Shown here: piece by piece, positions 1-40,663 of the stretch
How the letters are laid out: each line of letters begins with the position of its first letter
Position numbering within the stretch: the first letter of the stretch is position 1
Sequence record: PZ445525.1
DNA from: a phage
DNA: 44,362 nt
Strand: one strand, 5' to 3'
The notes under the pieces: generated by a model
Database searches by the model: none
Seen by the model: only the letters and a program-made list of their open reading frames with translations
Told to the model about the DNA's origin: nothing
Translations under genes and position numbers: made by a program

Positions 1-1386
1 ATGCGTAACTATGCGGCAGAACATCGCGCCCTTGAACGCGCGATCGCAAAGCGAAACCGACCGCCGCGACCGACACGCGTTGCGCAGGCCGTCCGCCTGT
101 ATCAACCTGATTGTCTTCCTCACCAGGTGGAACTACTGCGCGACACGAAGACTAAAATCCTCGGCCTGTGCTCCGGCTTCGGTGGCGGTAAGTCATGGGT
201 CGCCGCTAGAAAGGTCATCCAGCTTTTAACCCTGAACCCTGGTCATGACGGCATCGTTACAGAACCGACAATCCCACTCCTGGTTAAAATCATGTACCCG
301 GAACTGGAGAAGGCTTTCGACGAGGCTGGATTTCGGTGGAAGTTCAATAAGCAGGACAAGATTTACAGTGTGCTGGTGCGAGGCAAATGGACGCGCGTAA
401 TCTGCGAGTCAATGGAGAACTACACCCGCCTTATCGGGGTTAACGCCGCGTGGATTGTTGCCGACGAGTTTGACACCACGAAACAAGACGTCGCGATGGC
501 GGCATATCACAAATTGCTTGGTCGTCTGCGTGCTGGATTGGTACGCCAGTTTGTCATCGTGTCCACGCCGGAAGGCTTCCGGGCGATGTACCAGATTTTC
601 GAAGTGGAGAAGGATAGCCAGAAACGTTTGATCCGGGCGAAGACTACCGATAACCACCACTTACCGGCAGACTTTATCGACACGCTGCGCAGTCAATACC
701 CGGCTAACCTGATAGATGCGTACCTGAACGGCATGTTTGTCAACCTTACGTCGGGCGCGGTGTACAAGATGTTTAACCGCGAGGAGAACGCCAGCACCGA
801 AGAAGTGCAACCGGACGACACGCTGATTATCGGTATGGACTTTAACGTCACGAAAATGGCGGCGGTCGTGTACGTCAGACGGCAGCGCATCACCGAAAAC
901 AAGGAGTTCCGCGACGAGATTCACGCAGTGGATGAATTTGTGGACCTGTTTGATACCCCGGCTATGATTGAGGCGATCGAGGAGCGCTACCCCGATCATT
1001 GTGCTGCCGGTAGGGTCGTCGTTTACCCGGATAGCAGTGGCAAGTCACGTAAGACCGTTAACGCATCATCGTCCGATATCGCGCAACTGGAAGACGCGGG
1101 CTTCGAGGTGGAGTATGACAGTGTTAACCCACCTGTGAAAGACCGATTGATCGCGATGAATACGATGATGTGCAACTCGAAGGGCGTGCGCCAGTATTTT
1201 GTCAACCTGGATAAATGCCCTACACTAGCGAAATGTCTGGAACAGCAGGTTTACGACCTGAAGAAAGGTGAGCCGGATAAAACCGCCGGAGTGGACCACA
1301 TGAACGATGCCGCGGGCTACCCAATTGCGCACCTGTTCCCAGTGATTCGTCCAATCGCCGTTGTTCCAACTGTAGACTTCTACTAA
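1..1386 (+). CDS. terL: terminase large subunit
   Basis: 461-aa ORF with Walker A-like GFGGGKS and Walker B-like IVADEFD; directly follows the terS-like ORF across the window junction. Confidence 0.85.
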   Translation: MRNYAAEHRALERAIAKRNRPPRPTRVAQAVRLYQPDCLPHQVELLRDTKTKILGLCSGFGGGKSWVAARKVIQLLTLNPGHDGIVTEPTIPLLVKIMYPELEKAFDEAGFRWKFNKQDKIYSVLVRGKWTRVICESMENYTRLIGVNAAWIVADEFDTTKQDVAMAAYHKLLGRLRAGLVRQFVIVSTPEGFRAMYQIFEVEKDSQKRLIRAKTTDNHHLPADFIDTLRSQYPANLIDAYLNGMFVNLTSGAVYKMFNREENASTEEVQPDDTLIIGMDFNVTKMAAVVYVRRQRITENKEFRDEIHAVDEFVDLFDTPAMIEAIEERYPDHCAAGRVVVYPDSSGKSRKTVNASSSDIAQLEDAGFEVEYDSVNPPVKDRLIAMNTMMCNSKGVRQYFVNLDKCPTLAKCLEQQVYDLKKGEPDKTAGVDHMNDAAGYPIAHLFPVIRPIAVVPTVDFY

Positions 1387-4451: not shown

Positions 4452-5216
4452 TTAGCGCGGAATACCGCAAATCTCGTTTAACGTCTTCACGTCCAGCGCC
4501 ACCGCCGTGGACTTCGGTTTGTCCGGGTATGGAATGAACTGTTCCACTTCAGGCCACGCCTTGATCAGCTTCTTATCGGTATTGTGCATATCCAGCACGC
4601 CGGTAACGGTTAGTTTGAACGCGTCATACTTAGCTCGTAATTCGCGGCGGGCCTTGTCGTTACGGTCCAGGCGCTTACAGAAAGCATGATCTGCCGGGTA
4701 ATCCACGCGACCGCGCGGAAGATATATCGGCAGCGCTTTCCCGTCCTCGTCCAATTCACACACTGACGCGAGCATCTCTTCTTCGTATCCGGGTACAATA
4801 TCGCCGAGGTCAGGCGCGAGTTTGTTCATGTATTTGATGTCCCAGTATCCTCGATGTGTGCGGTTTTGGCGTCCGTCGCCACTCAATGACAAGGTGCGAA
4901 CATTTCCGCCTGCATTGATTTCGAAAGTGGCGTCATAAACGCTGCCGATACCTTTCGGGCGGTCGGTGTCATAACGATACTTCGCCTTGTTGGGGTAGAC
5001 GCAGACGCAGTATGTGGGTGACTCGGATCCTTCTAATGCTTCGATGTGTGCGCGTAACTCGGCGAACGTGCGAATGCCTTTTGGCATACAGTCCAGCGTA
5101 ATGGCGTACGCCAGGTCGCGAGAGTCCATCATAATGGATTTGGCTTCGGTCGTGATCGCATGGTCGCGCAGGATGTTAGCCAGAATCAGGTTTTTAATAT
5201 CTTTCGTCAGTCTCAT
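4452..5216 (-). CDS. hypothetical protein (reverse-oriented moron inside head module)
   Basis: 254-aa ORF from ATG 5216 with RBS gagga; the longer six-frame ORF (to 5624) adds a low-complexity N-terminus antisense to the scaffold gene, so the internal start is preferred. Confidence 0.6.
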   Translation of the reverse strand: MRLTKDIKNLILANILRDHAITTEAKSIMMDSRDLAYAITLDCMPKGIRTFAELRAHIEALEGSESPTYCVCVYPNKAKYRYDTDRPKGIGSVYDATFEINAGGNVRTLSLSGDGRQNRTHRGYWDIKYMNKLAPDLGDIVPGYEEEMLASVCELDEDGKALPIYLPRGRVDYPADHAFCKRLDRNDKARRELRAKYDAFKLTVTGVLDMHNTDKKLIKAWPEVEQFIPYPDKPKSTAVALDVKTLNEICGIPR

Positions 5217-5245
5217 TTGTGTGTCCTCGTTGTTGGTGTGCAACC

Positions 5246-5274
5246 AATATATGCAACCAATACGAGGATTGCAA
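5246..5274 (-). promoter_or_regulatory. candidate sigma70-type promoter for the reverse moron
   Basis: -35 TTGCAA (5269-5274), 17-nt spacer containing ATTGGTTGCA, -10 TATATT (5246-5251), second ATTGGTTGCA copy at the predicted start site. Confidence 0.4.
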
Positions 5275-5364: not shown

Positions 5365-6069
5365 ATGAATCTTACTAAAGCAGAATATGACGCGTTGCCG
5401 GAAGGTATGAAGGCGCTTTTTGTTGCCGATGGCGACGGGTATAAATCAACATTCATGACCGCCGAAGAGGTACAGGCGGAAATCAAGGGTCTGAAAGACA
5501 ATAACGCTAAGCTGGTGAGCGAGAAGAAAGCAGAAGCTGAACGCCGCGCCGAAGCTGAGCGCCTTGCGAAAGAGAAAGAGGAAGCCGCCGCGCGCAAAAA
5601 TGGCGACCTCGAAGCGATCGACAAGTCCTGGAAGGATAAGTTTGCGAAACACGAAGCAGATACATCGGGAAAAATCGAAGCCTACCGCAAGCAGATCCAC
5701 GATCTCACCATCGGCAGCGCTGCCAAAGACCTGGCATCAAAGCTGTTCGGTAAGAATGCCGGAATCATGCAACGTCACGTTATGGATCGCCTGACGCTGG
5801 AAGACGGCGAAGACGGCAGCTTGAAAGTGCGTGTATTGCAGGATGGCAAACCGTCCGCTCTTACTATGGAAGAACTTGAAAAAGAGTTCCGTAATAACGC
5901 CGATTTTGCATCCGTCCTGGCTGGCACGCCAGCCGGTGGCGCGCCTAGCAAACCGACGCAGGTTGTCGAAGATGTGAAGTCGAAAATCACTATGGGCCAC
6001 AGCTTCGGTATCACTGACCTTACGAAACAGGCAGGTGAAATCATCGCTAAGATGGGCGACGACGAGTAA
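5365..6069 (+). CDS. capsid scaffold protein
   Basis: 234-aa Lys/Glu/Ala-rich helical protein (AEAERRAEAERLAKEKEEAAARK) directly upstream of the major capsid gene; RBS aggggga; the six-frame ORF start at 5014 is rejected because that part is antisense to the moron. Confidence 0.6.
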   Translation: MNLTKAEYDALPEGMKALFVADGDGYKSTFMTAEEVQAEIKGLKDNNAKLVSEKKAEAERRAEAERLAKEKEEAAARKNGDLEAIDKSWKDKFAKHEADTSGKIEAYRKQIHDLTIGSAAKDLASKLFGKNAGIMQRHVMDRLTLEDGEDGSLKVRVLQDGKPSALTMEELEKEFRNNADFASVLAGTPAGGAPSKPTQVVEDVKSKITMGHSFGITDLTKQAGEIIAKMGDDE

Positions 6070-10848: not shown

Positions 10849-11170
10849 TGGAGCGGGACAGATCGGGGCGTCCCGTTTTGTCCCGCCTCCGCAAAACTGC
10901 ATACCTACTCACTTCCACTGCATAAACCCAAAACGGGACAAGCGGGACGTCCCGATCTATCCCACCCCATAAATGCGCATACCTATTCATATTTCGTGCA
11001 TAAAGCAAACGGGACAGAAAGCGGGACAAACAAGGGGTGGGACAAAGCGGGGCAGCACCCCGCCCCCACCAGTGCTGCCGCGGGTTTTAGCCGATCGGGA
11101 CAGGCGGGACAACTCCCAGTCTTTCAGACTAGACGGGGGTCAATGGCCCCCCTCGTCTGAGACTGAATAA
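10849..11170. repeat. GGGACA-iteron block with inverted sub-modules and terminal long hairpin (copy A)
   Basis: at least 8 exact GGGACA in ~270 bp; palindrome CGGGACGTCCCG; two inverted ~30-bp modules; 3' part (~10999-11170) about 85-90 percent identical to 38189-38362. Confidence 0.75.
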
Positions 11171-11233
11171 GGTTTGTTTTAAAATCGCTGATACAATGTC
11201 AATCGGCAACTGCATAAAAAAGGGGACTGCATA

Positions 11234-13876
11234 ATGGCAGATCAAGCGGCAGGCATCACGCTAAAGGCGGATGTTGCACAAATCAGAACGGCGAATACTG
11301 TGCTTGATTCATTCGCACAGAAATCCGAGAACACAGAAAACAAGGTTAAGAAATTAAACAACACCCTCGGCAACTCTAAAAAGGTGACGAGTGATGCCGC
11401 GGGCGGAATGGAAAAGCTGGCGAACGAATCGCAGCGCGCCGCCGATGGCATGACGAAACAGGAGCGACTCGCCAACAGGTTAGGCATGTCGACCAAAAAC
11501 CTGGGCTTTGCCTCGCGTAACGCAGCATTCCAGTTACAGGATATTGCGGTAACGCTTGAGATGGGTATGCCTGTGCACCGCGTTATGCTTCAGCAGTTAC
11601 CACAGCTTACTGGGGCGTTCGGTGGATTTGGTAACACGCTGCGTTATGTGGCGGGATTCCTCGGCCCGGTAGGGATCGGCATTGCAGCACTAACGGCAAC
11701 GTTAGGCGTAGGAGTGGCGGTTACGTCCCGTGCCGAAAACCAGGTCGCAGCGCTTAACAAGACGCTGGCGCTGTCGGGTAATATTTCCGGCCTCACCGCT
11801 AACCAGATCCTTGTGCTGTCGGAGAACGCCGAGCGTATGGGCGGGTCATTCAGTAAGACGCGTGACACAATCCAGGCGCTGGCAGCAGCGGGTGTGAAAG
11901 CGGGCGCTGACTTCGGCGCGCTGGCGAAAGTGGTGAATGACTTTGCGAAGGCGTCTAATCAGCCGATCTCTGACGTGGTTGAATCCATCTCAAAATTGTC
12001 GAACGACCCGGTCGGGGGACTGCGCGCACTGGCGGACCAGTATCACGTCGTTACCGAGGCGCAGATCCAGCAGGTGCAATCACTAGTGACGGCGGGTCGC
12101 GAAACCGAAGCGGTGGCGCTGGCTAACAAAACAGCCGCTGCGTCGTTCTCCAGCATGACCAATGAGATCAAGTCCAACATGGGTACGCTCGAGCGGTCGA
12201 TGAACGTCGTCACATCGGCAGCCAAATCCATGTGGGACGCCATCCTGGATGTGGGCCGCGCGCAGTCCTCGAATGAGTCCGAGATGAAAGCGCGTGAATC
12301 CTTGCAGCGCATGACCACGGCGTACTATGCCGAGATGAGGGCGGTAAACGCTGCCGGTGGGGTGATGACCGAAGCGCAGAAAGCGCGTATTAACATGCTT
12401 TACAGCGAACTGGTCGCCCAGGAAAAGGTGGTGGCGTCGCTCACCCTGCGCAACCGTGCCGAGCGAGACAACGCCAGCGCCGCGGACGAAGCCGCAAAGG
12501 CGAACGAGGAGGCCAATCGCACCGCCCGCGACCGCGCCGCGTTTGAGAAGGAGTACGCAACCAACGCGAAGCGGCGAGCCGACGAGATCGCCCGCCTCAA
12601 CTTGCTGAATAAGCGCGGTGTTATTAACGAGAAAGAACTAGCCGAGGCGGTGAAGCAGGTCAACGAGCGCTACAAAGACCCCGCACCGAAGAAAGCGGCG
12701 GCAATTCGAGTCGATGCCGGGCTGAAAATGCTGGAAGTCGCGCGAAGCGAATTAGCCCAGCTTCGAGAGTCTGGGAAGCAGATCGAAGCCAACGCATCGA
12801 CGCAGACCCGCACGCAACGCGCGCAAGCGGCTCTTAACAAGCTGATTGCCGATAATGAGCAGTTAATCGCCGCAAGCAAGGAGCGCACACTAACGGCAGC
12901 AGAAAAGCAGCAAACGGCGGAGTTCGAGGCGGTTAAATCGGTACGCGAGCAGATCGTCGAAGAAGCCAAATTGCTGGACGCGAAAGAGAAGCAGATCAAG
13001 GCACACGCCCAGGTCGAGGCATTCATCAAGAACCAGAACGCCGAGCTAAAAGCCACCGCGGCGGGCTATGCGCTTTCTACTCGCGAAGCGGCTAACCTGC
13101 GCGAAGAGTTGCAGCTAATTGACCGCCTTCAGCGTGCCGGTGCTAACGATACTGATATTGACAAGGCGGTGTCTAAGCTGCGTGAGGTTCAGGAAGCACA
13201 GACCGGTGCTAACGCCTCATTATGGGATGGATTCAGTCGCGGGCTTCGCGATAGTGTGGATGAAATGGGTAACGGATACACGCAGATGGCGTCACTCACA
13301 AAATTCACGTTCGGCGCTATGCAGGACACGATGAACGAGTTTTTCGAGACTGGCAAGCTGAACGCAAAAGATATGGTTAAGTCCATTCTGAGCGAATTAA
13401 TAAAGCTGGCTACCTCGCAGGCGTTCAAGTCCATCGTTAGCGCTTTCGGTGGTGACGGAGGCAAAAACGGATTGTTCGGCGCTATCTTCTCGGGCCTCAC
13501 TAAGAATGCGGACGGCGGAGCGTACGCAGGAGGTAATCTCGCGGCCTATTCGGGGCAGGTGGTAAGCCAGCCAACCTTTTTCAGTTATGGCGTCCAGGCG
13601 TTCGCTAAGGGCGCAGGATTGATGGGTGAGGCGGGACCCGAAGCCATCATGCCGCTGAAGCGCGGCCCGGACGGCAAACTTGGCGTTGCCGCTGCCGGTG
13701 GTGTCGGGGGGATGATTGTAACGACCAACGTTAACATGGGGACCGGTAAGACGGATACCAGTGTTAGCGGACCAGACCCGCGCACCGCGCAGGCGTTCGG
13801 AAAGCAAATCACCGAGTCGGTCAAGGCCGAGATCGTGAAGGCGACGAAACCGGGTGGTGTACTTTACAAACGATGA
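11234..13876 (+). CDS. tail tape measure protein
   Basis: 880-aa Ala/Gln/Glu-rich coiled-coil ORF with RBS aagggga, between chaperone and distal tail genes. Confidence 0.85.
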   Translation: MADQAAGITLKADVAQIRTANTVLDSFAQKSENTENKVKKLNNTLGNSKKVTSDAAGGMEKLANESQRAADGMTKQERLANRLGMSTKNLGFASRNAAFQLQDIAVTLEMGMPVHRVMLQQLPQLTGAFGGFGNTLRYVAGFLGPVGIGIAALTATLGVGVAVTSRAENQVAALNKTLALSGNISGLTANQILVLSENAERMGGSFSKTRDTIQALAAAGVKAGADFGALAKVVNDFAKASNQPISDVVESISKLSNDPVGGLRALADQYHVVTEAQIQQVQSLVTAGRETEAVALANKTAAASFSSMTNEIKSNMGTLERSMNVVTSAAKSMWDAILDVGRAQSSNESEMKARESLQRMTTAYYAEMRAVNAAGGVMTEAQKARINMLYSELVAQEKVVASLTLRNRAERDNASAADEAAKANEEANRTARDRAAFEKEYATNAKRRADEIARLNLLNKRGVINEKELAEAVKQVNERYKDPAPKKAAAIRVDAGLKMLEVARSELAQLRESGKQIEANASTQTRTQRAQAALNKLIADNEQLIAASKERTLTAAEKQQTAEFEAVKSVREQIVEEAKLLDAKEKQIKAHAQVEAFIKNQNAELKATAAGYALSTREAANLREELQLIDRLQRAGANDTDIDKAVSKLREVQEAQTGANASLWDGFSRGLRDSVDEMGNGYTQMASLTKFTFGAMQDTMNEFFETGKLNAKDMVKSILSELIKLATSQAFKSIVSAFGGDGGKNGLFGAIFSGLTKNADGGAYAGGNLAAYSGQVVSQPTFFSYGVQAFAKGAGLMGEAGPEAIMPLKRGPDGKLGVAAAGGVGGMIVTTNVNMGTGKTDTSVSGPDPRTAQAFGKQITESVKAEIVKATKPGGVLYKR

Positions 13877-31593: not shown

Positions 31594-32331
31594 TTAACGG
31601 CGGCGACGTGTACGTGGTGCTTCGTCTTCGTCTTCGTCGTCGTCCTCATCTTCGTCGTCATCGCGGCGCTTGGATTTCTTGGACTTGCGCGGCTTGTCAT
31701 CTTCATCATCGTCATCACGACGTTTTGACTTCTTAGCCTTGCGCGGTGCTTCGTCTTCGTCGTCGTTGTCCAGGTCTTCATCGGAGCAAGAAGACCCGCC
31801 ACCTCCGAAGGCTTCGCCGTCTTCACGGAATCGCAGACCCAGCAAGCCTGCCCCGAGTCCCTTGCCGTTGGTATTGTTCCACGCCCAAATATCAAGGGAC
31901 ACGTTGCAATAACAACCGGAGTAGATCTCCTGGCCTTCAATCTCGTCGCCGTCGACGGTCAGACCCTGTTCAGTCTGCTTCTCGCCTAGTGACGTTTGAA
32001 TGATAGGCTGTTTGAACGATTTGGCGTTGATGTACAACATGCCTTCGAATTCTTCGGTCACTTCGTCGCGCTCGTCGCCGTCGCGAACTGCACATTCCTT
32101 AGAATCTTGGGCGTAGTGGCGGTCCATCCACTTATCGGCATTCTTCTCGGATTTCAGCTTGTCGGTGAGCACTGCGCGTGCTGCCGCTTCCACTTTGTCC
32201 ACCTGCGGATCTTCTTTATCCAGAAGAATAACGGCACGGTATGCCGGTTTTTGTCCATCCTGTTTAGGGGTATCACGCTCCCAAATTTTCAGGAAGCATA
32301 CGCGCACATTTTTCAGGTTGACTTTAGCCAT
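31594..32331 (-). CDS. ssDNA-binding protein candidate (DUF2815-like) with acidic/basic repeat tail
   Basis: 245-aa ORF from MAKVNLKNVRVCF with RBS gagga; C-terminus has alternating K/R-rich and D/E-rich tandem repeats. Confidence 0.55.
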   Translation of the reverse strand: MAKVNLKNVRVCFLKIWERDTPKQDGQKPAYRAVILLDKEDPQVDKVEAAARAVLTDKLKSEKNADKWMDRHYAQDSKECAVRDGDERDEVTEEFEGMLYINAKSFKQPIIQTSLGEKQTEQGLTVDGDEIEGQEIYSGCYCNVSLDIWAWNNTNGKGLGAGLLGLRFREDGEAFGGGGSSCSDEDLDNDDEDEAPRKAKKSKRRDDDDEDDKPRKSKKSKRRDDDEDEDDDEDEDEAPRTRRRR

Positions 32332-32388
32332 TTTCCAATTCCTCATTTTCACATGTATCGGGGTTAATGGAAGCCACCCCGTTCGGCT

Positions 32389-34574: not shown

Positions 34575-35084
34575 TTAATCTTCCAGTTCGAAATAGGTTT
34601 CGACGATTTCTTTTAGCTCTTTGTGGAAGTCTTCGACGTCGTCATCTTCCAGCTTGGCGATTGATTTGATCTCGAACGCTTCCAGCAGATCATCAAATTC
34701 GTCGTTAGCGTCGTCGTCATCACCACCGGCAATAATCGCGGCATACTGTTTGATTTCGTCGCGCATCTCCGCCAGCGGATCGGCATCTTTCTTACCTTTG
34801 CCTTTCGCCGGTGCTTTTTTAGCCTTAGCCGGTTTTTCGTCTTCGGCGTCTTCGTCGTCATCTTCTACGACTTCTTTTTTGGCCTTGCCTTTCGCCGGTG
34901 CTTTTTTAGTTTTCGCCGGTGCTTCGTCGTCAGCGTCGTCATCTTCTACGACTTCTTTTTTGGCCTTAGACGGCTTCTTGTCTTCCTGTTTACCAACGGC
35001 AGCGCCAACGGTTTCATAATGTTTGGCGATGGTTTCCAGTGCTACTACGCCGCGAGTGATCAGGTTTACGATTTGTTCGAACAT
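34575..35084 (-). CDS. acidic repeat protein, first gene of leftward operon
   Basis: 169-aa ORF from ATG 35084 with RBS ggaga; two tandem ~24-aa repeats KKEVVEDDD-D-E-PAK-KKAPAKGK-KK. Confidence 0.5.
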   Translation of the reverse strand: MFEQIVNLITRGVVALETIAKHYETVGAAVGKQEDKKPSKAKKEVVEDDDADDEAPAKTKKAPAKGKAKKEVVEDDDEDAEDEKPAKAKKAPAKGKGKKDADPLAEMRDEIKQYAAIIAGGDDDDANDEFDDLLEAFEIKSIAKLEDDDVEDFHKELKEIVETYFELED

Positions 35085-35280
35085 GGTATATCTCCGATTG
35101 GTTAAGTTTAGGTGTCGGCAGTTAACTTCGTCGGTGGCCTTAACATATTGCCCGGTTGCGCGTTCTCCCGTTCGGGTAGTGGACCGGGTTATATAATCAC
35201 GGTTGGGAATCCTGACACTTCGATCCGGCCCCTGCGTTGCCCCTCTCCAGTTTGCGTCCTGCATCCTGTCGACGGAGTGA

Positions 35281-35489: not shown

Positions 35490-35819
35490 ATGAATGTAAA
35501 CGACGCAATCGAAATGTTAACGAAGACTGTTTGCAGTGAGACAAGCCGGTCATGGGCTTATACAGATGCCGTGGGGGCGGTGTTATTCGAAATCGAACGA
35601 CTACGGCTTACCGAAAAAGAATTGCGCGCCCGGCTGGAATTACTCAACGGTACGGCGGCCAGCAAGCTGCAAAAGCACAATGAAGAAATGGAAGAATACA
35701 AAAAGCAGGTTATCCGTTTGCGCGATGAGGGAAAGTCATGGGCGATGATTGCCGAGTTAACCGGAATTAATCAGAGCACTGTGCGCTCATGGGTACGCAA
35801 TAATAAAACTTCTAAGTAA
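35490..35819 (+). CDS. helix-turn-helix DNA-binding protein
   Basis: 109-aa ORF; C-terminal S-W-A-M-I-A-E-L-T-G-I-N-Q-S-T-V-R-S-W HTH-like segment; first gene of rightward operon. Confidence 0.55.
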   Translation: MNVNDAIEMLTKTVCSETSRSWAYTDAVGAVLFEIERLRLTEKELRARLELLNGTAASKLQKHNEEMEEYKKQVIRLRDEGKSWAMIAELTGINQSTVRSWVRNNKTSK

Positions 35820-35829
35820 GGCAACGGCA

Positions 35830-38094
35830 ATGAGCTTAATCAAATTCGCTGTAACACGCCCCGCTAAAAAAGGCGAAAAAGCCAGGGCGGAAAACTTCCA
35901 GATGACCACCGACGAGTTTTTCGAATTTATCAACGATGCTAAAGAAATATCCTCGGTGCATATCAACAAGACGGAAGATAAAGCCGAGTATGCGCGCCGC
36001 AAGCGTAAGGCCGATGGCATTGTGGCTTATACCAGTGATGGGCTGCGCCGCAAGACCAGTGCGGTGGATCGCTCGATCCTGTTCTTCGATATTGACCGTA
36101 CCGACACCCGCACCCTGCGCCGCTGCCGTAAGGCGTTTATCGACGCGGGGCTGGAACACGTATTTCACACCACAACCGGCGACCGCCACCCGCTGAAAGG
36201 CGGCACGCGTTGCGCGCGTTTCCTGGTGCTAACGGATAAGCCTGTACCGGCTGAAGACCTGGGCCGCGTCCAGTATGCACTATTACACCAACTGGGCCTG
36301 TCAGATGTGGACTTCGATGATTGTACGAAAGACACAAACCGCCTAATGTACCTGCCGCACCAGCAATCGGTTATCAAATGCCATTACGGAAAGCGCGCCC
36401 GCGTCCGTCGTCTGCTTCGCCTGGCGGATAAGCTGGGAGTGGAAAAAGAGGAAGTACGCCGCGAACTAACCCAGGGCGATGACGGCGTGGCGGACGGCAT
36501 TCTGGATTGGTGCTTCCAGGCAGGATTCGAACCGCTGTCGTCCGGTCGTGGTTATGAAGTGCCGTGCCCTAACGAACACCTGCACAGCGGCGAAGGGTCC
36601 ACCGCTATCATGGTTAAGGATGGCGAGATCCGTTTCAAGTGTATGCACACCGGCAACGAGTGTTGCTCGGAACTGAACAGACACCAGCACCTGGCGCTAA
36701 GTCTTATCGGGATACCGGACCACCTGAACGTCGAACCGCACAACATGTCACGCAAGCAAATCGCCGCCATTCTCCCAGGACTGGACGACGAGGAAGTGGA
36801 ATCGTGCTATGCGCATATCGTTGATGCGGTCGGTGACGGCGACGAGTACGGCGGATGTACCGATGCGGACCTGGACAACGAACCGGTCGCACTGTTCAGC
36901 AAGCACGACCCGATCATCGAGGGGTTGATTAACTTCAAATCGACCTGGTATATGGCGGGTGAGTCGAATATCGGTAAATCGTTCTACGTGCTGGGGCAAA
37001 TGGGTGCGGTTGCCGCTGGGATTCCGTTCGGTGGCGCGAAGGTAGTCCAGTCTCATTGCTTCTATTTCGACGCGGAAGGTGGCGAAGCCTCCCACCAGCG
37101 TAAGGAAGCATTGCAGATTAAATACGAGCACGACCTGGACAAGCTGCACATTATCGACCTGCAATCTCGCGGCTGGGATATCACCAGCAAATCCGGCTTG
37201 CGTGAAGTTATCAGCTTTATCAACCGCACCGCTAACGGCGAACCGGTTGGCCTGGTGGCGTTCGACTCACTCAACCAGACTGTTGCGCTGCGGTCCGCCG
37301 ATGCTAAACCGTTCGACGAGAACAACGCCAGCGATATGGGCGAAGTGGTCAAGGCGCTGAAGGCCATTGCGGAAAATACCGGCGGCAGTGCTGGCGTCAT
37401 CCACCACCCGGCGAAAGGTGCAAACGGCAGCAGAACCCCACGCGGGTCCGGCGCGCTGCATGGTGCTGTCGATTCCGCGTTCTTCCTGGAGCAACCGGAC
37501 GACAATCAGCCGGGCCAATTGAACCTGTTTCACGAAAAGGCACGTAACGGCATCAAGCAAGCGCCGCGCGGATTCGTCCTGCTCAAGTGCAAGGTTAAGG
37601 TTGATCTCCGCAAGTCCGAGGCGTTCGAAGCCCACCAGTCCACCTGCTCCGGGCCGGACTTCGGGGACGTCGTTGCCGGTTGGGACGTCAAGCCAATTGC
37701 CTCCACGCCACGCGACGAGACTCTTTACCTCGTACCTGTCGCCCTGGCACCGTTCGCTATCGAACAGGCGAAGGCCGCGGGCAAGGCCGCAGTTAAGGAA
37801 GAGAACGCCGCAGGCCCGCGCAACGAAAAAGAGAAAGTGCTTTATGCGGCGCTGGAAAAACTGATGGAAGATAACCCGGACCATACCGGATTCAGCAAAT
37901 CGGCAATCGTCCGCCAGGCGGGATTGGCAAAAGGGGGTACGTCGACGAAGGCAATCGACGATATGGTCGAGCGCGGCGTACTCGGTTTTTATACAGACCC
38001 GCACACCGGGGCCATCTATGGGTCGTCAAATATCGTCATAAAAACGAACATACCCATCACGCTTTCTGCGACCGACGATGACTTAAAAGATTAA
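35830..38094 (+). CDS. bifunctional primase-helicase (AEP-type prim-pol domain fused to RecA-fold helicase)
   Basis: N-terminal I-L-F-F-D-I-D-R (DxD) primase motif; zinc-ribbon cysteines; Walker A G-E-S-N-I-G-K-S and Walker B-like V-A-F-D-S; ~190-aa C-terminal extension. Confidence 0.8.
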   Translation: MSLIKFAVTRPAKKGEKARAENFQMTTDEFFEFINDAKEISSVHINKTEDKAEYARRKRKADGIVAYTSDGLRRKTSAVDRSILFFDIDRTDTRTLRRCRKAFIDAGLEHVFHTTTGDRHPLKGGTRCARFLVLTDKPVPAEDLGRVQYALLHQLGLSDVDFDDCTKDTNRLMYLPHQQSVIKCHYGKRARVRRLLRLADKLGVEKEEVRRELTQGDDGVADGILDWCFQAGFEPLSSGRGYEVPCPNEHLHSGEGSTAIMVKDGEIRFKCMHTGNECCSELNRHQHLALSLIGIPDHLNVEPHNMSRKQIAAILPGLDDEEVESCYAHIVDAVGDGDEYGGCTDADLDNEPVALFSKHDPIIEGLINFKSTWYMAGESNIGKSFYVLGQMGAVAAGIPFGGAKVVQSHCFYFDAEGGEASHQRKEALQIKYEHDLDKLHIIDLQSRGWDITSKSGLREVISFINRTANGEPVGLVAFDSLNQTVALRSADAKPFDENNASDMGEVVKALKAIAENTGGSAGVIHHPAKGANGSRTPRGSGALHGAVDSAFFLEQPDDNQPGQLNLFHEKARNGIKQAPRGFVLLKCKVKVDLRKSEAFEAHQSTCSGPDFGDVVAGWDVKPIASTPRDETLYLVPVALAPFAIEQAKAAGKAAVKEENAAGPRNEKEKVLYAALEKLMEDNPDHTGFSKSAIVRQAGLAKGGTSTKAIDDMVERGVLGFYTDPHTGAIYGSSNIVIKTNIPITLSATDDDLKD

Positions 38095-38164
38095 ATTTTG
38101 CGCGCATTGGTTGCCATTTTGAGTGTTTCTAGCCGGTCGTATTGGTTGCCGTGTAGTGTGAACA

Positions 38165-38362
38165 TAGTGAATAGTTATGCAGTTTTATTGCATAAAACAA
38201 ACGGGACAAAAGGCGGGACAAACAAGGGGCGGGACAAAGCGGGACAGCACCCCGTCCCACCCCCGGATGACGCGGCCTGGAGAGGAGCGGGACAAGCGGG
38301 ACAAACCCCAGTCTTTCAGACTAGACGGGGGTCAGTGGCCCCCCTCGTCTGAGACTGAATAA
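38165..38362. repeat. GGGACA-iteron block with terminal long hairpin (copy B)
   Basis: 6 exact GGGACA in ~120 bp; hairpin CAGTCTTTCAGACTAGACGGGGGTCAGTGGCCCCCCTCGTCTGAGACTG differs from copy A by one loop base. Confidence 0.75.
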
Positions 38363-38516
38363 AATCCGGGGATTGCAAAATACACGGCAGCATGATGCGA
38401 AGTGCGGTCGCGGATGAACTAGGCAACCAATGCCAGTTGTATTATGCGGAGTGAAAAACGCAGTTTGCAGTCACAGCAGATAGCGATCAACTTTTTCATG
38501 CGCGTGATTAATATTG

Positions 38517-38552
38517 GTTGCATTCAGCCCGGCACCCGGCTATATTGGTTGC
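38517..38552 (+). promoter_or_regulatory. candidate promoter for small early genes with paired ATTGGTTGCA motifs
   Basis: TTGCAT (within ATATTGGTTGCAT), 17-nt spacer, TATATT, then GGTTGCACACCAAC, the same string found at the moron promoter. Confidence 0.4.
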
Positions 38553-38574
38553 ACACCAACATGAGGGCTGAACG

Positions 38575-38772
38575 ATGGAACACGAAGACCTGGTCGACGA
38601 ACTGTTAGAACTGATTGAGGCCGAGAACAAAGCTGATTTGCAAGCACGCGCAGCGTACATGGTCGGCAACATTAAGAAATCGCGCCACTACGCCGGATTG
38701 CGTGTAAAGGCGCAAGAGGCCTTGCTGCAATTCCTGGACAGCGTAACTATCACGAAGAGGACCGAACAATGA
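38575..38772 (+). CDS. small acidic hypothetical protein
   Basis: 65-aa ORF with RBS gagggctgaacg; acidic N-terminal half. Confidence 0.5.
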   Translation: MEHEDLVDELLELIEAENKADLQARAAYMVGNIKKSRHYAGLRVKAQEALLQFLDSVTITKRTEQ

Positions 38773-39666: not shown

Positions 39667-40202
39667 AATTACTATTCCGCCGTAAGTGCGATGGCCGTAT
39701 CCTGAAGCCGATCCAGACCCTTGCTACATGCGTGCGCTTGAGTCATGTTCACAGTGGCCTTGAGTGTCTGGCGGATACGGCCCACCTACCGGCAAACTTT
39801 GACGTACTCACACACGATATTGAGCGCGGAGATGTGCTGCGTGATATTCGCGATGGGCAATTGTGGGTCGTGGAGTGTGCGGGATTTAATAACCTTCGTA
39901 TACAGACACGCATGGGTGGCGTATCGGGCAACATGATTAGGGGTATGACGTACTTCGGGCTAATCCACTACGAGCGCGTGGGGCGCAAGTACAGACTCCG
40001 CAAGTCACAGCCAGCCTATGCGACCTACGACGCGAGCAAAGTGCAGGAACCGATCCGCCGTGCCGCACACGAAATCGTCAATCGCTTTGATGCCGTGACG
40101 AATGCGCAGCGCCATGCGCAGGAATACGGCGTTGGATTCATCCGGGTAGAACGAGACGGCAGCATGAAAGCCATCGACCCGCGCTCGGTGATTCTGAAAT
40201 GA
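39663..40202 (+). CDS. hypothetical protein
   Basis: 179-aa ORF with ATGA coupling. Confidence 0.5.
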   Translation: MKLLFRRKCDGRILKPIQTLATCVRLSHVHSGLECLADTAHLPANFDVLTHDIERGDVLRDIRDGQLWVVECAGFNNLRIQTRMGGVSGNMIRGMTYFGLIHYERVGRKYRLRKSQPAYATYDASKVQEPIRRAAHEIVNRFDAVTNAQRHAQEYGVGFIRVERDGSMKAIDPRSVILK

Positions 40203-40339
40203 GTGCGACGATCCGTGATATGCTGATGCACAACCGCTTTGAGATAGGCGGTCGGGTGTTCCGCAATTACTTCGTGGCGCGTGCCTGGGCGCGCCATATT
40301 GGCAAACCAGAGGGGGCAATACGATGCTACACGATTTGA
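40199..40339 (+). CDS. small hypothetical protein
   Basis: 46-aa ORF with ATGA overlap to the previous gene. Confidence 0.3.
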   Translation: MSATIRDMLMHNRFEIGGRVFRNYFVARAWARHIGKPEGAIRCYTI

Positions 40340-40611
40340 TATATTGGTTTGGATTGGCCTGGGGGCTATGCCTGATCACGGCAGTTCTGGGCGCGATATG
40401 GGTATTCCTGGTATGGCCAGCGGTGGAAGCTGCCAGTATTACCCGGATGACGTTCCAGATATACAAGCGCCGAGGCATCACGGATCACCCAACCCGGTTG
40501 CGCATGTGGTGGCTGTGGTATCGGGATATGATAGGCGGGCGAACATTCGAAGCCGTCCGATCATCCGGGTGGGAGTGGAAAGGCGTCGGCAAGTGGTCCA
40601 TTTTCGATTAA
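40324..40611 (+). CDS. small membrane protein
   Basis: 95-aa ORF with RBS gaggggg; two hydrophobic helices then Trp/Arg-rich tail. Confidence 0.5.
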   Translation: MLHDLIYWFGLAWGLCLITAVLGAIWVFLVWPAVEAASITRMTFQIYKRRGITDHPTRLRMWWLWYRDMIGGRTFEAVRSSGWEWKGVGKWSIFD

Positions 40612-40663
40612 TTATGCAAGCGTGATATAGTCCCAGTGAGCTAAAACTTACTGGGACTTTTTT

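Follow-up and report, generated by a model that had tools for sequence, protein, structure and literature searches.

A duplicated iteron and hairpin module beside the Dhillonvirus primase-helicase gene as a candidate replication origin

What purpose is served by the 480 bp that a virulent coliphage leaves free of genes directly behind its primase-helicase? The stretch of DNA analysed here (the window; PZ445525.1, 44,362 nt) is the complete genome of a Dhillonvirus (HK578-like coliphage, a siphophage), with terL as its first gene. The primase-helicase open reading frame (ORF) extends to 38094 and is followed by another from 38575 onward, in agreement with the 480-bp gap described in an earlier reading of the sequence alone (the sequence-only reading). 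This gap, region B, holds an AT-rich core, direct and inverted copies of a short repeat (iterons) and a long imperfect hairpin; a paralogous module, region A, lies ahead of the tape-measure gene. We propose, with a probability of roughly two in three, that region B is the cis-acting origin of the phage's own primase-helicase and that region A is its second copy. The sequence-only reading had likewise suggested an origin or early control region, with iterons beside a primase-helicase that binds them through its C-terminal domain. Co-variation of the iterons with that domain, together with the placement of similar arrays at 38 of 40 loci encoding helicases of the AAA_25 family, supports the suggestion; origin function itself we infer.

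Both regions are already marked in the GenBank record of Sodalis phage SO-1 (NC_013600), where the orthologous segments are entered as repeat_region 'region A' (11214-11597) and 'region B' (40178-40657), described as direct, inverted and palindromic repeats with mutual similarity and given a 'possible' function; the observation as such is therefore not new. In the searchable literature we found no study of the origin of Dhillonvirus or Guernseyvirinae, no analysis of co-variation between iterons and C-terminal domains, and no description of GGGACA arrays linked to AAA_25 genes.

Anatomy of region B and of its second copy

Region B opens with two ATTGGTTGCC motifs, located exactly where the sequence-only reading had placed them (coordinates of all features are collected in Table 1). 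The pair is kept in Dhillonvirus B copies and is inverted in a lineage of 68% identity (L019). In roughly one Dhillonvirus genome in two, ~58 additional nt are inserted directly after the helicase stop codon, with a third ATTGGTTGCC and the palindrome GATATGGGAATTCCCATATC (L048, L049, L066, L067, L058, L064, L001); the window lacks it. Then comes the AT-rich core, a candidate unwinding element composed of the box GTGAATAGTTATGCAG and an overlapping inverted repeat. Its GAATAGTTAT occurs once in the window, against 0.1 copies expected, and is found at the same place in lineages whose iterons differ. A reading of GTGAATAGTTATGCAG as a DnaA box was rejected on inspection of the sequence: what the lineages retain is GAATAGTTATGCA and not the TGTG that a DnaA box would have.

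The iterons follow. Six exact GGGACA copies on the + strand (38203, 38215, 38231, 38241, 38289 and 38298), the number given previously for ~120 bp, are accompanied by one inverted GTCCC at 38254. By comparison, 300 mononucleotide shuffles yielded at most three copies in 120 nt. The spacing had been described as 10-12 bp, which needs correction: it is 12/16/10 nt in the proximal block and 9 nt in the distal pair. All seven GGGAC(A) copies lie 108-210 nt past the primase-helicase stop codon, and the proximal ones form a GC-rich palindrome with the inverted copy (38226-38264). Regions A and B hold 14 of the genome's 22 GGGACA copies, and the iterons are the strongest k-mer cluster genome-wide, in the window as well as in Salmonella phage FSL SP-031.

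Downstream of the distal pair lies the hairpin, which by analogy is a candidate signal for single-strand priming or assembly. Its DNA-fold z is -3.5, and that of its counterpart in region A -3.8; as had been noted, a single loop base distinguishes the two (TCAGTGG in B, TCAATGG in A). The sequence right after the hairpin is AATAAAATCC in B and AATAAGGTTTG in A. In some records two ORFs of region B (38098-38352 and 38177-38362) are annotated as 'hypothetical'. We reject them as genes, and regard region B as non-coding, because ~30 aligned copies, including close relatives, show 1-nt indels and loops of unequal length; the ORF at 38177-38362 had no match in the family scan. Region B has no match in E. 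coli genomes or plasmids either, and a host or plasmid origin of the element was rejected on this ground.

Region A consists of three units of AT-rich box and iterons, with ~13 GGGAC/GTCCC altogether. A direct repeat of 192 nt, shorter than region A itself, links it to region B (10979-11170 and 38171-38362, 84% identical); the offset of 27192 bears out the ~27 kb between direct repeats that had been read from the sequence. Region A is kept in every Dhillonvirus examined, with an A-specific spacer unlike that of B; the duplication must therefore be old, both copies having been maintained. In the 68% lineage (L222) it occupies the same gap between the tail-chaperone and tape-measure genes, with 11 CGGGAC in 170 nt, a GAATAGTTATGCAG box and a hairpin. 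Thus, in Dhillonvirus and in the 68% lineage, region A carries B's iteron 27 kb away from the helicase gene, as would be expected if the repeat is bound by a protein acting in trans. In Eiauvirus eiAU-183 there are regions at both of these places: they have clusters of TGCAACCAAC and CGCCCC repeats in common, as well as a 52-nt segment of 88% identity, and there is a hairpin ahead of the tape-measure gene. FSL SP-031 has a single iteron cluster only.

Two further observations concern region A. The extended -10 sequence TGATACAAT is invariant in all aligned A copies, and the tape-measure and distal tail genes may have their own promoter there. Contigs of L016, L084 and L221 (IMG/VR), as well as the eiAU-183 record KF772234 (L227), begin or stop within region A or B. 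The most likely explanation for these ends is that assemblies of circularly permuted genomes break at a two-copy repeat.

Lineage-specific repeats and the C-terminal domain of the helicase

The primase-helicase matches a single Pfam family, AAA_25 (RecA-fold helicases of the RepA type). A profile search adds a weak match to RSF1010 RepA (1g8y), beyond which sequence searches of the PDB with the protein gave nothing. Its N-terminus models as an archaeo-eukaryotic primase (AEP) and its C-terminal domain as a winged helix; the DNA-binding fold that had been predicted for the C-terminus is thus found in the structure model, at moderate confidence.

We compared 42 IMG/VR loci encoding primase-helicase homologues, 37-99% identical. 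In at least eight lineages a collinear module stands directly after the helicase stop codon. It begins with an AT-rich core containing the box GAATAGTTATGCA and continues with three to four direct short repeats, spaced 12 and 16-17 nt, and with one or two inverted copies that create a GC palindrome. After a spacer of 35-45 nt come one or two further direct repeats, then a long imperfect hairpin and, 45-65 nt on, a CACGGCAGC box (CGGCAGC). Seven lineages whose iterons have other sequences show the 12/16-17 spacing as well. With L022 as the one exception among those mapped, every lineage has a distal iteron or pair 25-40 nt ahead of the hairpin, and the CACGGCAGCA box keeps its distance from the hairpin in all lineages mapped. 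The repeat itself is lineage-specific: CGGGACA in Dhillonvirus and the 68%-identity lineage L019, GGGGAGA in FSL SP-031 (Cornellvirus), L045 and L028, CCGACA in L035, L042 and L046, CGGACAA in L034 and L038-L041, AGGGATA in L033, GGGGAT in L047 and TTGCGAG in the L022 group. In three distant lineages a box TGATTTATAAGG is seen in the spacer between the iteron blocks (L034:5425-5445, L222:5130-5150, L043:5425-5445 and 5640-5665); it also forms a 23-nt inverted pair, 200 nt apart, in region B of eiAU, is absent from the window, and fits the consensus of integration host factor poorly.

The hairpin, too, differs in sequence in every lineage, and its design is kept in 10: the 5' arm of the outer stem can also pair with a nearby partner copy, and the inner stem is made of a G-run and a C-run. 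It folds better than shuffled sequences in all 10 (z -2.4 to -4.3). Among ~30 Dhillonvirus copies the stem is invariant and the loop variable, and a compensatory change from A-T to G-C is seen between the A and B hairpins of the 68% lineage. RNAalifold predicted no pairs on a MAFFT alignment of the 10 lineages' hairpins because these are too different in sequence to be aligned; each sequence was instead folded individually and compared with its shuffles.

In every locus compared, the class of iteron tracks the signature of the helicase C-terminal domain and not the helicase core. L034 and L045 are 96% identical in the core and 42% in the C-terminal domain, and L040 and L042 99% and 51%; the iterons differ within both pairs. 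Conversely, L035, L042 and L046 have only 78-80% identity in the core and 68-84% in the C-terminal domain, and their iteron is the same. Where the third helix begins, each class bears a distinct signature, for instance KGGTSTKAIDDM in the window, KGGDRYKILKDL with GGGGAGA, and DGGRRRPA with CCGACA. Neighbouring genes do not follow the repeat. The Cro-like helix-turn-helix (HTH) protein encoded upstream does not vary between L034, L045 and L046, although each of the three has an iteron of its own, and it is likewise identical in L042 and L047; in these Cornellvirus-like lineages it is therefore not the iteron binder. This protein belongs to a different family from the 109-aa HTH protein of the window. 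The first downstream gene differs among L035, L042 and L046 despite their common iteron. The specificity of the initiator, judged from these sequences, appears to match its own iterons.

The placement of the array extends beyond homologues of this enzyme. More than 120 loci on unrelated viral contigs were picked up when IMG/VR was scanned for CGGGACA copies in close succession, and 117 were analysed (L092-L208). An AAA_25 helicase ORF is encoded in 40 of them, and in 38 of these the largest GGGACA/TGTCCC cluster starts between -224 and +330 nt from its stop codon. Most of the linked arrays start within 50 nt of the stop and have mostly 8-12 copies, arranged around a GC palindrome (for example L115:1815-2015, L161:4632-4860 and L094:4599-4800). 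The primase fused to the helicase varies: Pfam Prim-Pol, Toprim with a zinc ribbon, or an unassigned AEP-like domain. Since the array keeps to the 3' end of the helicase gene despite varied primases and in unrelated contigs, the placement rule is a general one. The C-termini of these helicases have a motif in common, WR..FY...KKAF.RA. As a tentative and rather doubtful extension, region B may be one case of a widespread AAA_25 design, in which any of several types of primase is combined with a C-terminal iteron-binding domain and with iterons, often GGGACA, at the stop codon. In Dhillonvirus and Eiauvirus the module would then have been duplicated into the tail operon to give two cooperating sites comparable to ori and crr of P4, the hairpin would serve the AEP in priming, and exchangeable cassettes of C-terminal domain and iterons would sort virulent phages into groups of replication specificity.

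Region B matches 159 phage records at 78-95% identity, nearly all of them Dhillonvirus of Escherichia or Shigella, and the gene order of the window is that of annotated members such as PaulFeyerabend and SO-1. Structural genes occupy the + strand to ~23 kb; from there to 35.5 kb the minus strand carries the genes for replication and modification. The + strand arm from 35.5 kb begins with the genes for the 109-aa HTH protein, which is likely a transcription regulator outside the origin proper, and for the 754-aa primase-helicase. Two of the minus-strand genes (31594-32352 and 34575-35264) contain related GTC/TTC-rich direct repeats CTTCGTCGTCATC... at 31613-31783 and 34629-34967, which encode acidic Asp/Glu-rich tracts on the coding strand; the second gene has, in addition, an 87-nt tandem duplication.

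Table 1. Positions of the two modules, of the neighbouring genes and of promoter-like sequences in the window.
Feature	Position	Strand	Remarks
Region A, paralogous module	10851..11233	+	between tail-chaperone frameshift ORF and tape-measure gene
Region A hairpin	11117-11165		
Conserved extended -10 TGATACAAT	11189-11197		between copy-A hairpin and tape-measure start codon
Region A CGGCAAC box	11204-11210		copy-A form of CACGGCAGCA box
109-aa HTH protein gene	35490..35819	+	Pfam HTH_23 / Sigma70_r4_2; directly upstream of primase-helicase
Primase-helicase gene	35830..38094	+	754 aa
AEP primase domain	residues ~1-205		
Cys/His-rich helical region	residues ~218-335		
RepA-type AAA_25 helicase domain	residues 357-531		Pfam
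C-terminal winged helix	residues ~666-737, nt ~37825-38040		structure model
Region B, whole non-coding module	38095..38574	+	candidate origin and downstream promoter
Two ATTGGTTGCC motifs	38106-38114, 38141-38149	+	left edge of module
AT-rich core	38167..38195	+	box GTGAATAGTTATGCAG 38167-38182; inverted repeat TTATGCA-N7-TGCATAA 38175-38195
Proximal iteron block	38202..38264	+	CGGGACA x4 at 38202, 38214, 38230, 38240; inverted GTCCC 38254
Distal iteron pair	38288..38304	+	CGGGACA x2, 9 nt apart
Long imperfect hairpin	38309..38357		CAGTCTTTCAGACTAGACGGGGG-loop-CCCCCCTCGTCTGAGACTG, 49 nt; DNA fold -13.4 kcal/mol
Conserved box CACGGCAGCA	38383..38392	+	unique in window
Fifth ATTGGTTGC motif	38423..38431	-	
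Sigma-70-like promoter	38513..38561	+	TTGCAT 38518-38523, 17-nt spacer, TATATT 38541-38546; includes ATTGGTTGC 38513, 38544
ATTGGTTGC positions	5240, 5253, 21302, 24175/24186, 25842, 25859, 28803/28815, 32387/32403, 35288, 38106-38552, 39272		

Alternative explanations, objections and a proposed mechanism

Could the module control transcription instead? The GGGACA repeats would then be sites for a phage transcription factor acting on the operon at 38575 (for copy A, on the tape-measure and tail genes), and the hairpin a terminator or insulator. One argument of this kind comes from the motif ATTGGTTGC, which is operator-like and interleaved with the repeats. Its exact copies number 14 genome-wide where ~0.3 would be expected, and they are often paired at a distance of 13-35 nt. 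At no fewer than eight loci, on both strands, it lies 30-80 nt upstream of the start of a gene on the same strand and overlaps a -35-like TTGC. From its distribution the motif is best read as an operator or promoter element for a regulator, a layer separate from the origin; its place is taken by ATGTTGGCTG in Cornellvirus-like phages and by GTTGGTTGCA in eiAU. The sequence-only reading had counted four motifs of this type in the gap as part of the origin region. All four are present, with a fifth overlooked on the minus strand at 38423; they are not specific to the origin, the motif being genome-wide. At the edges of region B, ATTGGTTGC fits a coupling of transcription to origin function.

Each copy of the module is located between transcription units, with a promoter-like sequence behind it: TTGCAT-17-TATATT (38518-38546) in B and TGATACAAT in A. 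The ATATTGGTTGCA pair that had been noticed ahead of the downstream genes is indeed there, at 38511 and 38542 (the ATTGGTTGC contained in it at 38513 and 38544), and overlaps TTGCAT-17-TATATT. The latter matches 8 of 12 consensus positions (3/6 and 5/6), which is below the threshold of the consensus scan, and we therefore call it promoter-like only. A 21-nt sequence, TATATTGGTTGCACACCAACA, is identical at 38541-38561 (+) and, inverted, at 5231-5251 (-), at both promoters: one copy stands ahead of the gene at 38575, the other ahead of a minus-strand moron-like gene in the head-gene cluster (4452-5216).

One GenBank record annotates a terminator inside region B. However, our sigma-70 and terminator scans of region B gave no convincing calls, no intrinsic terminator was called on the + strand of region A or B, and in Dhillonvirus the long hairpin has no + strand T-run. 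Other evidence against transcriptional control comes from the comparison of lineages: the upstream HTH regulator is the same in phages with three different repeats, the type of repeat is independent of the first downstream gene and follows the helicase C-terminal domain, and arrays follow AAA_25 genes in unrelated phages with different downstream content. We consider it unlikely that transcription control is the main function of the module. The two readings are not exclusive, since origins often include promoters.

A role in packaging or DNA processing is much less probable still. Here the repeats would be a pac site bound by TerS, or else recombination or the processing of concatemers would make use of the two copies. 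Short-repeat arrays are typical of the sites of terminase small subunits (SPP1, P1 pac), and region A or B contains the start or the end of several assemblies and of the eiAU-183 record. Such ends are, however, the expected outcome when a short-read assembler meets a two-copy repeat in circularly permuted genomes. The array is 5.6 kb upstream of terS, neither in it nor next to it, and its tight link to AAA_25 stop codons in unrelated contigs is not expected of a pac site. Nor was a gene for a ParB-like protein, a recombinase or another site-binding protein found in the right arm of the window.

Hardly credible is a structured non-coding RNA, or a mobile element resembling a miniature inverted-repeat transposable element, inserted twice as the 192-nt repeat and without any role in replication: two copies in direct orientation and a strong predicted secondary structure (RNA-fold z -3.2 and -2.1) are as it would have them, but scans of the whole window for Rfam, tRNA and tmRNA matches were negative, target-site duplications and terminal inverted repeats are lacking, no genome has more than two copies, the positions are fixed and the copy-specific spacers kept across 14-16 genomes and across genera, the element is absent from E. 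coli genomes and plasmids, and a lineage-specific iteron sequence within a constant architecture indicates a DNA-protein site.

Several observations weigh against the origin reading itself. The iterons of region B lie on only one side of the AT-rich core, the inverted copy on the same side; in Cornellvirus-like lineages and in region A of the window they flank the AT-rich box on both sides. L029-L032, L036 and L037 have a similar C-terminal domain and no repeat array within 3 kb, and a search of the 8-kb loci of L029-type lineages found no iterons. The model of the C-terminal domain is of moderate confidence only (mean pLDDT, the predicted local distance difference test score, 66), and winged helices also serve protein-protein contacts. 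Between the C-termini of the GGGACA-associated helicases and the Dhillonvirus C-terminal domain, hhalign detected no homology (probability 1%). A switch of GC skew near 38.2 kb had been put forward as a check; there is none, nor is there one at 11 kb. The cumulative skew is lowest near 35 kb and highest near 23 kb; it tracks gene orientation, and because it follows the gene strand it is uninformative as an origin marker. Of three checks put forward with the sequence-only reading and carried out here, the other two turned out as predicted.

Finally, the coding end of the C-terminal domain adjoins the iterons, so that one recombination could move both, and in blastn the divergence forms one block that begins at about codon 664 and reaches beyond the hairpin. 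Some of the co-variation is therefore owed to physical linkage. On the other side, an island of 92% identity is preserved at the GAATAGTTATGC boxes inside this otherwise unalignable block, and all 6-9 repeat copies have changed in concert within each lineage; both findings argue for selection. The lineages L029-L032, L036 and L037 are recognizable by a C-terminal signature of their own, PGGGRRPALKSL; in these, terminator-like hairpins and convergent genes come after the primase-helicase gene.

How might an origin of this kind work? By analogy with known systems, the C-terminal winged helix would bind the CGGGACA iterons (four direct, one inverted, and the distal pair), and binding would bring about assembly of the RepA-type helicase ring on the adjacent AT-rich core (GTGAATAGTTATGCAG...TGCATAA) and melting of the latter. 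As the helicase would be assembled by its own iteron binding, we propose that the enzyme is a self-loading initiator-helicase. Unwinding would let the 49-nt hairpin extrude as single-stranded DNA, the AEP domain could prime at the hairpin or at the nearby CACGGCAGCA box, and the phage's Pol I-type polymerase would extend the primer. Region A might be a second origin, or an enhancer like crr of P4.

If this is true, it would be the first mapped origin for Dhillonvirus, for Cornellvirus and related metagenomic lineages, and for Eiauvirus. These are common phages of E. coli, Salmonella or Edwardsiella, used in therapy and held in collections such as BASEL. A module of 250-300 bp with its cognate protein domain is a directly testable target, and could be of use in phage engineering, for phagemids and for swaps of replication specificity. 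The two-copy module may account for frequent assembly breaks at two fixed places, and the association of GGGACA with AAA_25 points to a simple rule by which the origins of many uncultivated phages might be predicted.

Comparison with known systems

An iteron origin next to a self-loading primase-helicase, as region B would be, is an already-known type of origin; the duplicated module and the rule linking AAA_25 genes to arrays are the most interesting parts. A close parallel in layout is offered by the pathogenicity islands of S. aureus (SaPIs). In SaPI Rep and PriRep5, a C-terminal winged helix binds 6-12 iterons of 5-6 nt, which sit directly downstream of the rep ORF around an AT-rich stretch and whose specificity varies between islands; Rep is a self-loading initiator-helicase, and PriRep5 is fused to a primase (PMC9371898). 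The phage enzyme is likewise a primase-helicase with a modelled C-terminal winged helix, and its seven iterons, which start 108 nt past the stop codon, stand next to an AT-rich box and change with the phage lineage. Unlike the SaPI helicases, which are SF3 (superfamily 3) or MCM-like, it has a RecA-fold helicase of the RepA/AAA_25 type. The iterons of region B are one-sided, those of Cornellvirus-like lineages flanking the AT-rich core. The phage has, in addition, the long conserved hairpin and, at a distance of 27 kb, a second module; it is a virulent coliphage rather than a satellite island.

The alpha protein of P4 is reported to unite a primase, a helicase and a C-terminal winged-helix origin-binding domain in one polypeptide, an account credited to Ziegelin and Lanka. 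P4 has two separate cis regions, ori and crr, with the same iterons, and a second, distant region with the same iterons is what the phage genome has as well. The two enzymes are not homologous, alpha being a Toprim primase joined to an SF3 helicase. Moreover, ori and crr are 4.5 kb apart, in contrast to the 27 kb between the phage regions, and P4 is not known to have an equivalent of the long hairpin.

The oriV of the IncQ plasmid RSF1010 combines iterons with GC-rich and AT-rich segments. Its RepA-type helicase is weakly related to that of the phage (1g8y; Pfam AAA_25), and the AEP primase of the phage is of the RepB' type. In RSF1010, RepB' primes on the 40-nt inverted repeats ssiA and ssiB within oriV (PMC8567376); by analogy we propose a role like that of ssi for the phage hairpin. 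However, RSF1010 uses three separate proteins and iterons of ~20 bp bound by RepC, whereas in the phage the functions are apparently fused in one protein, the iterons are of ~7 bp, and there is a single hairpin per module. We identified no separate initiator in the phage. With no such initiator, short iterons and one hairpin, the phage system is a functional analogue of IncQ and not a member.

The archaeal plasmid pRN1 offers the last comparison. A repressor gene is followed by the gene for ORF904, with its prim-pol, helicase and winged-helix domains, and just downstream by an essential stem-loop origin, the structure of which is constant among relatives despite changes of sequence; stem-loops of this kind after such genes in phages are pointed out by the authors, who also draw the comparison with the domain layout and iteron origin of P4 alpha (PMC4234260). 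In contrast to the phage, pRN1 belongs to an archaeal host, its helicase is of the SF3 type, its stem-loop measures ~100 nt, and iterons are absent. The order of the parts is nevertheless the same: in the phage, too, a gene for a small DNA-binding protein is followed by the primase-helicase gene and then by a hairpin.

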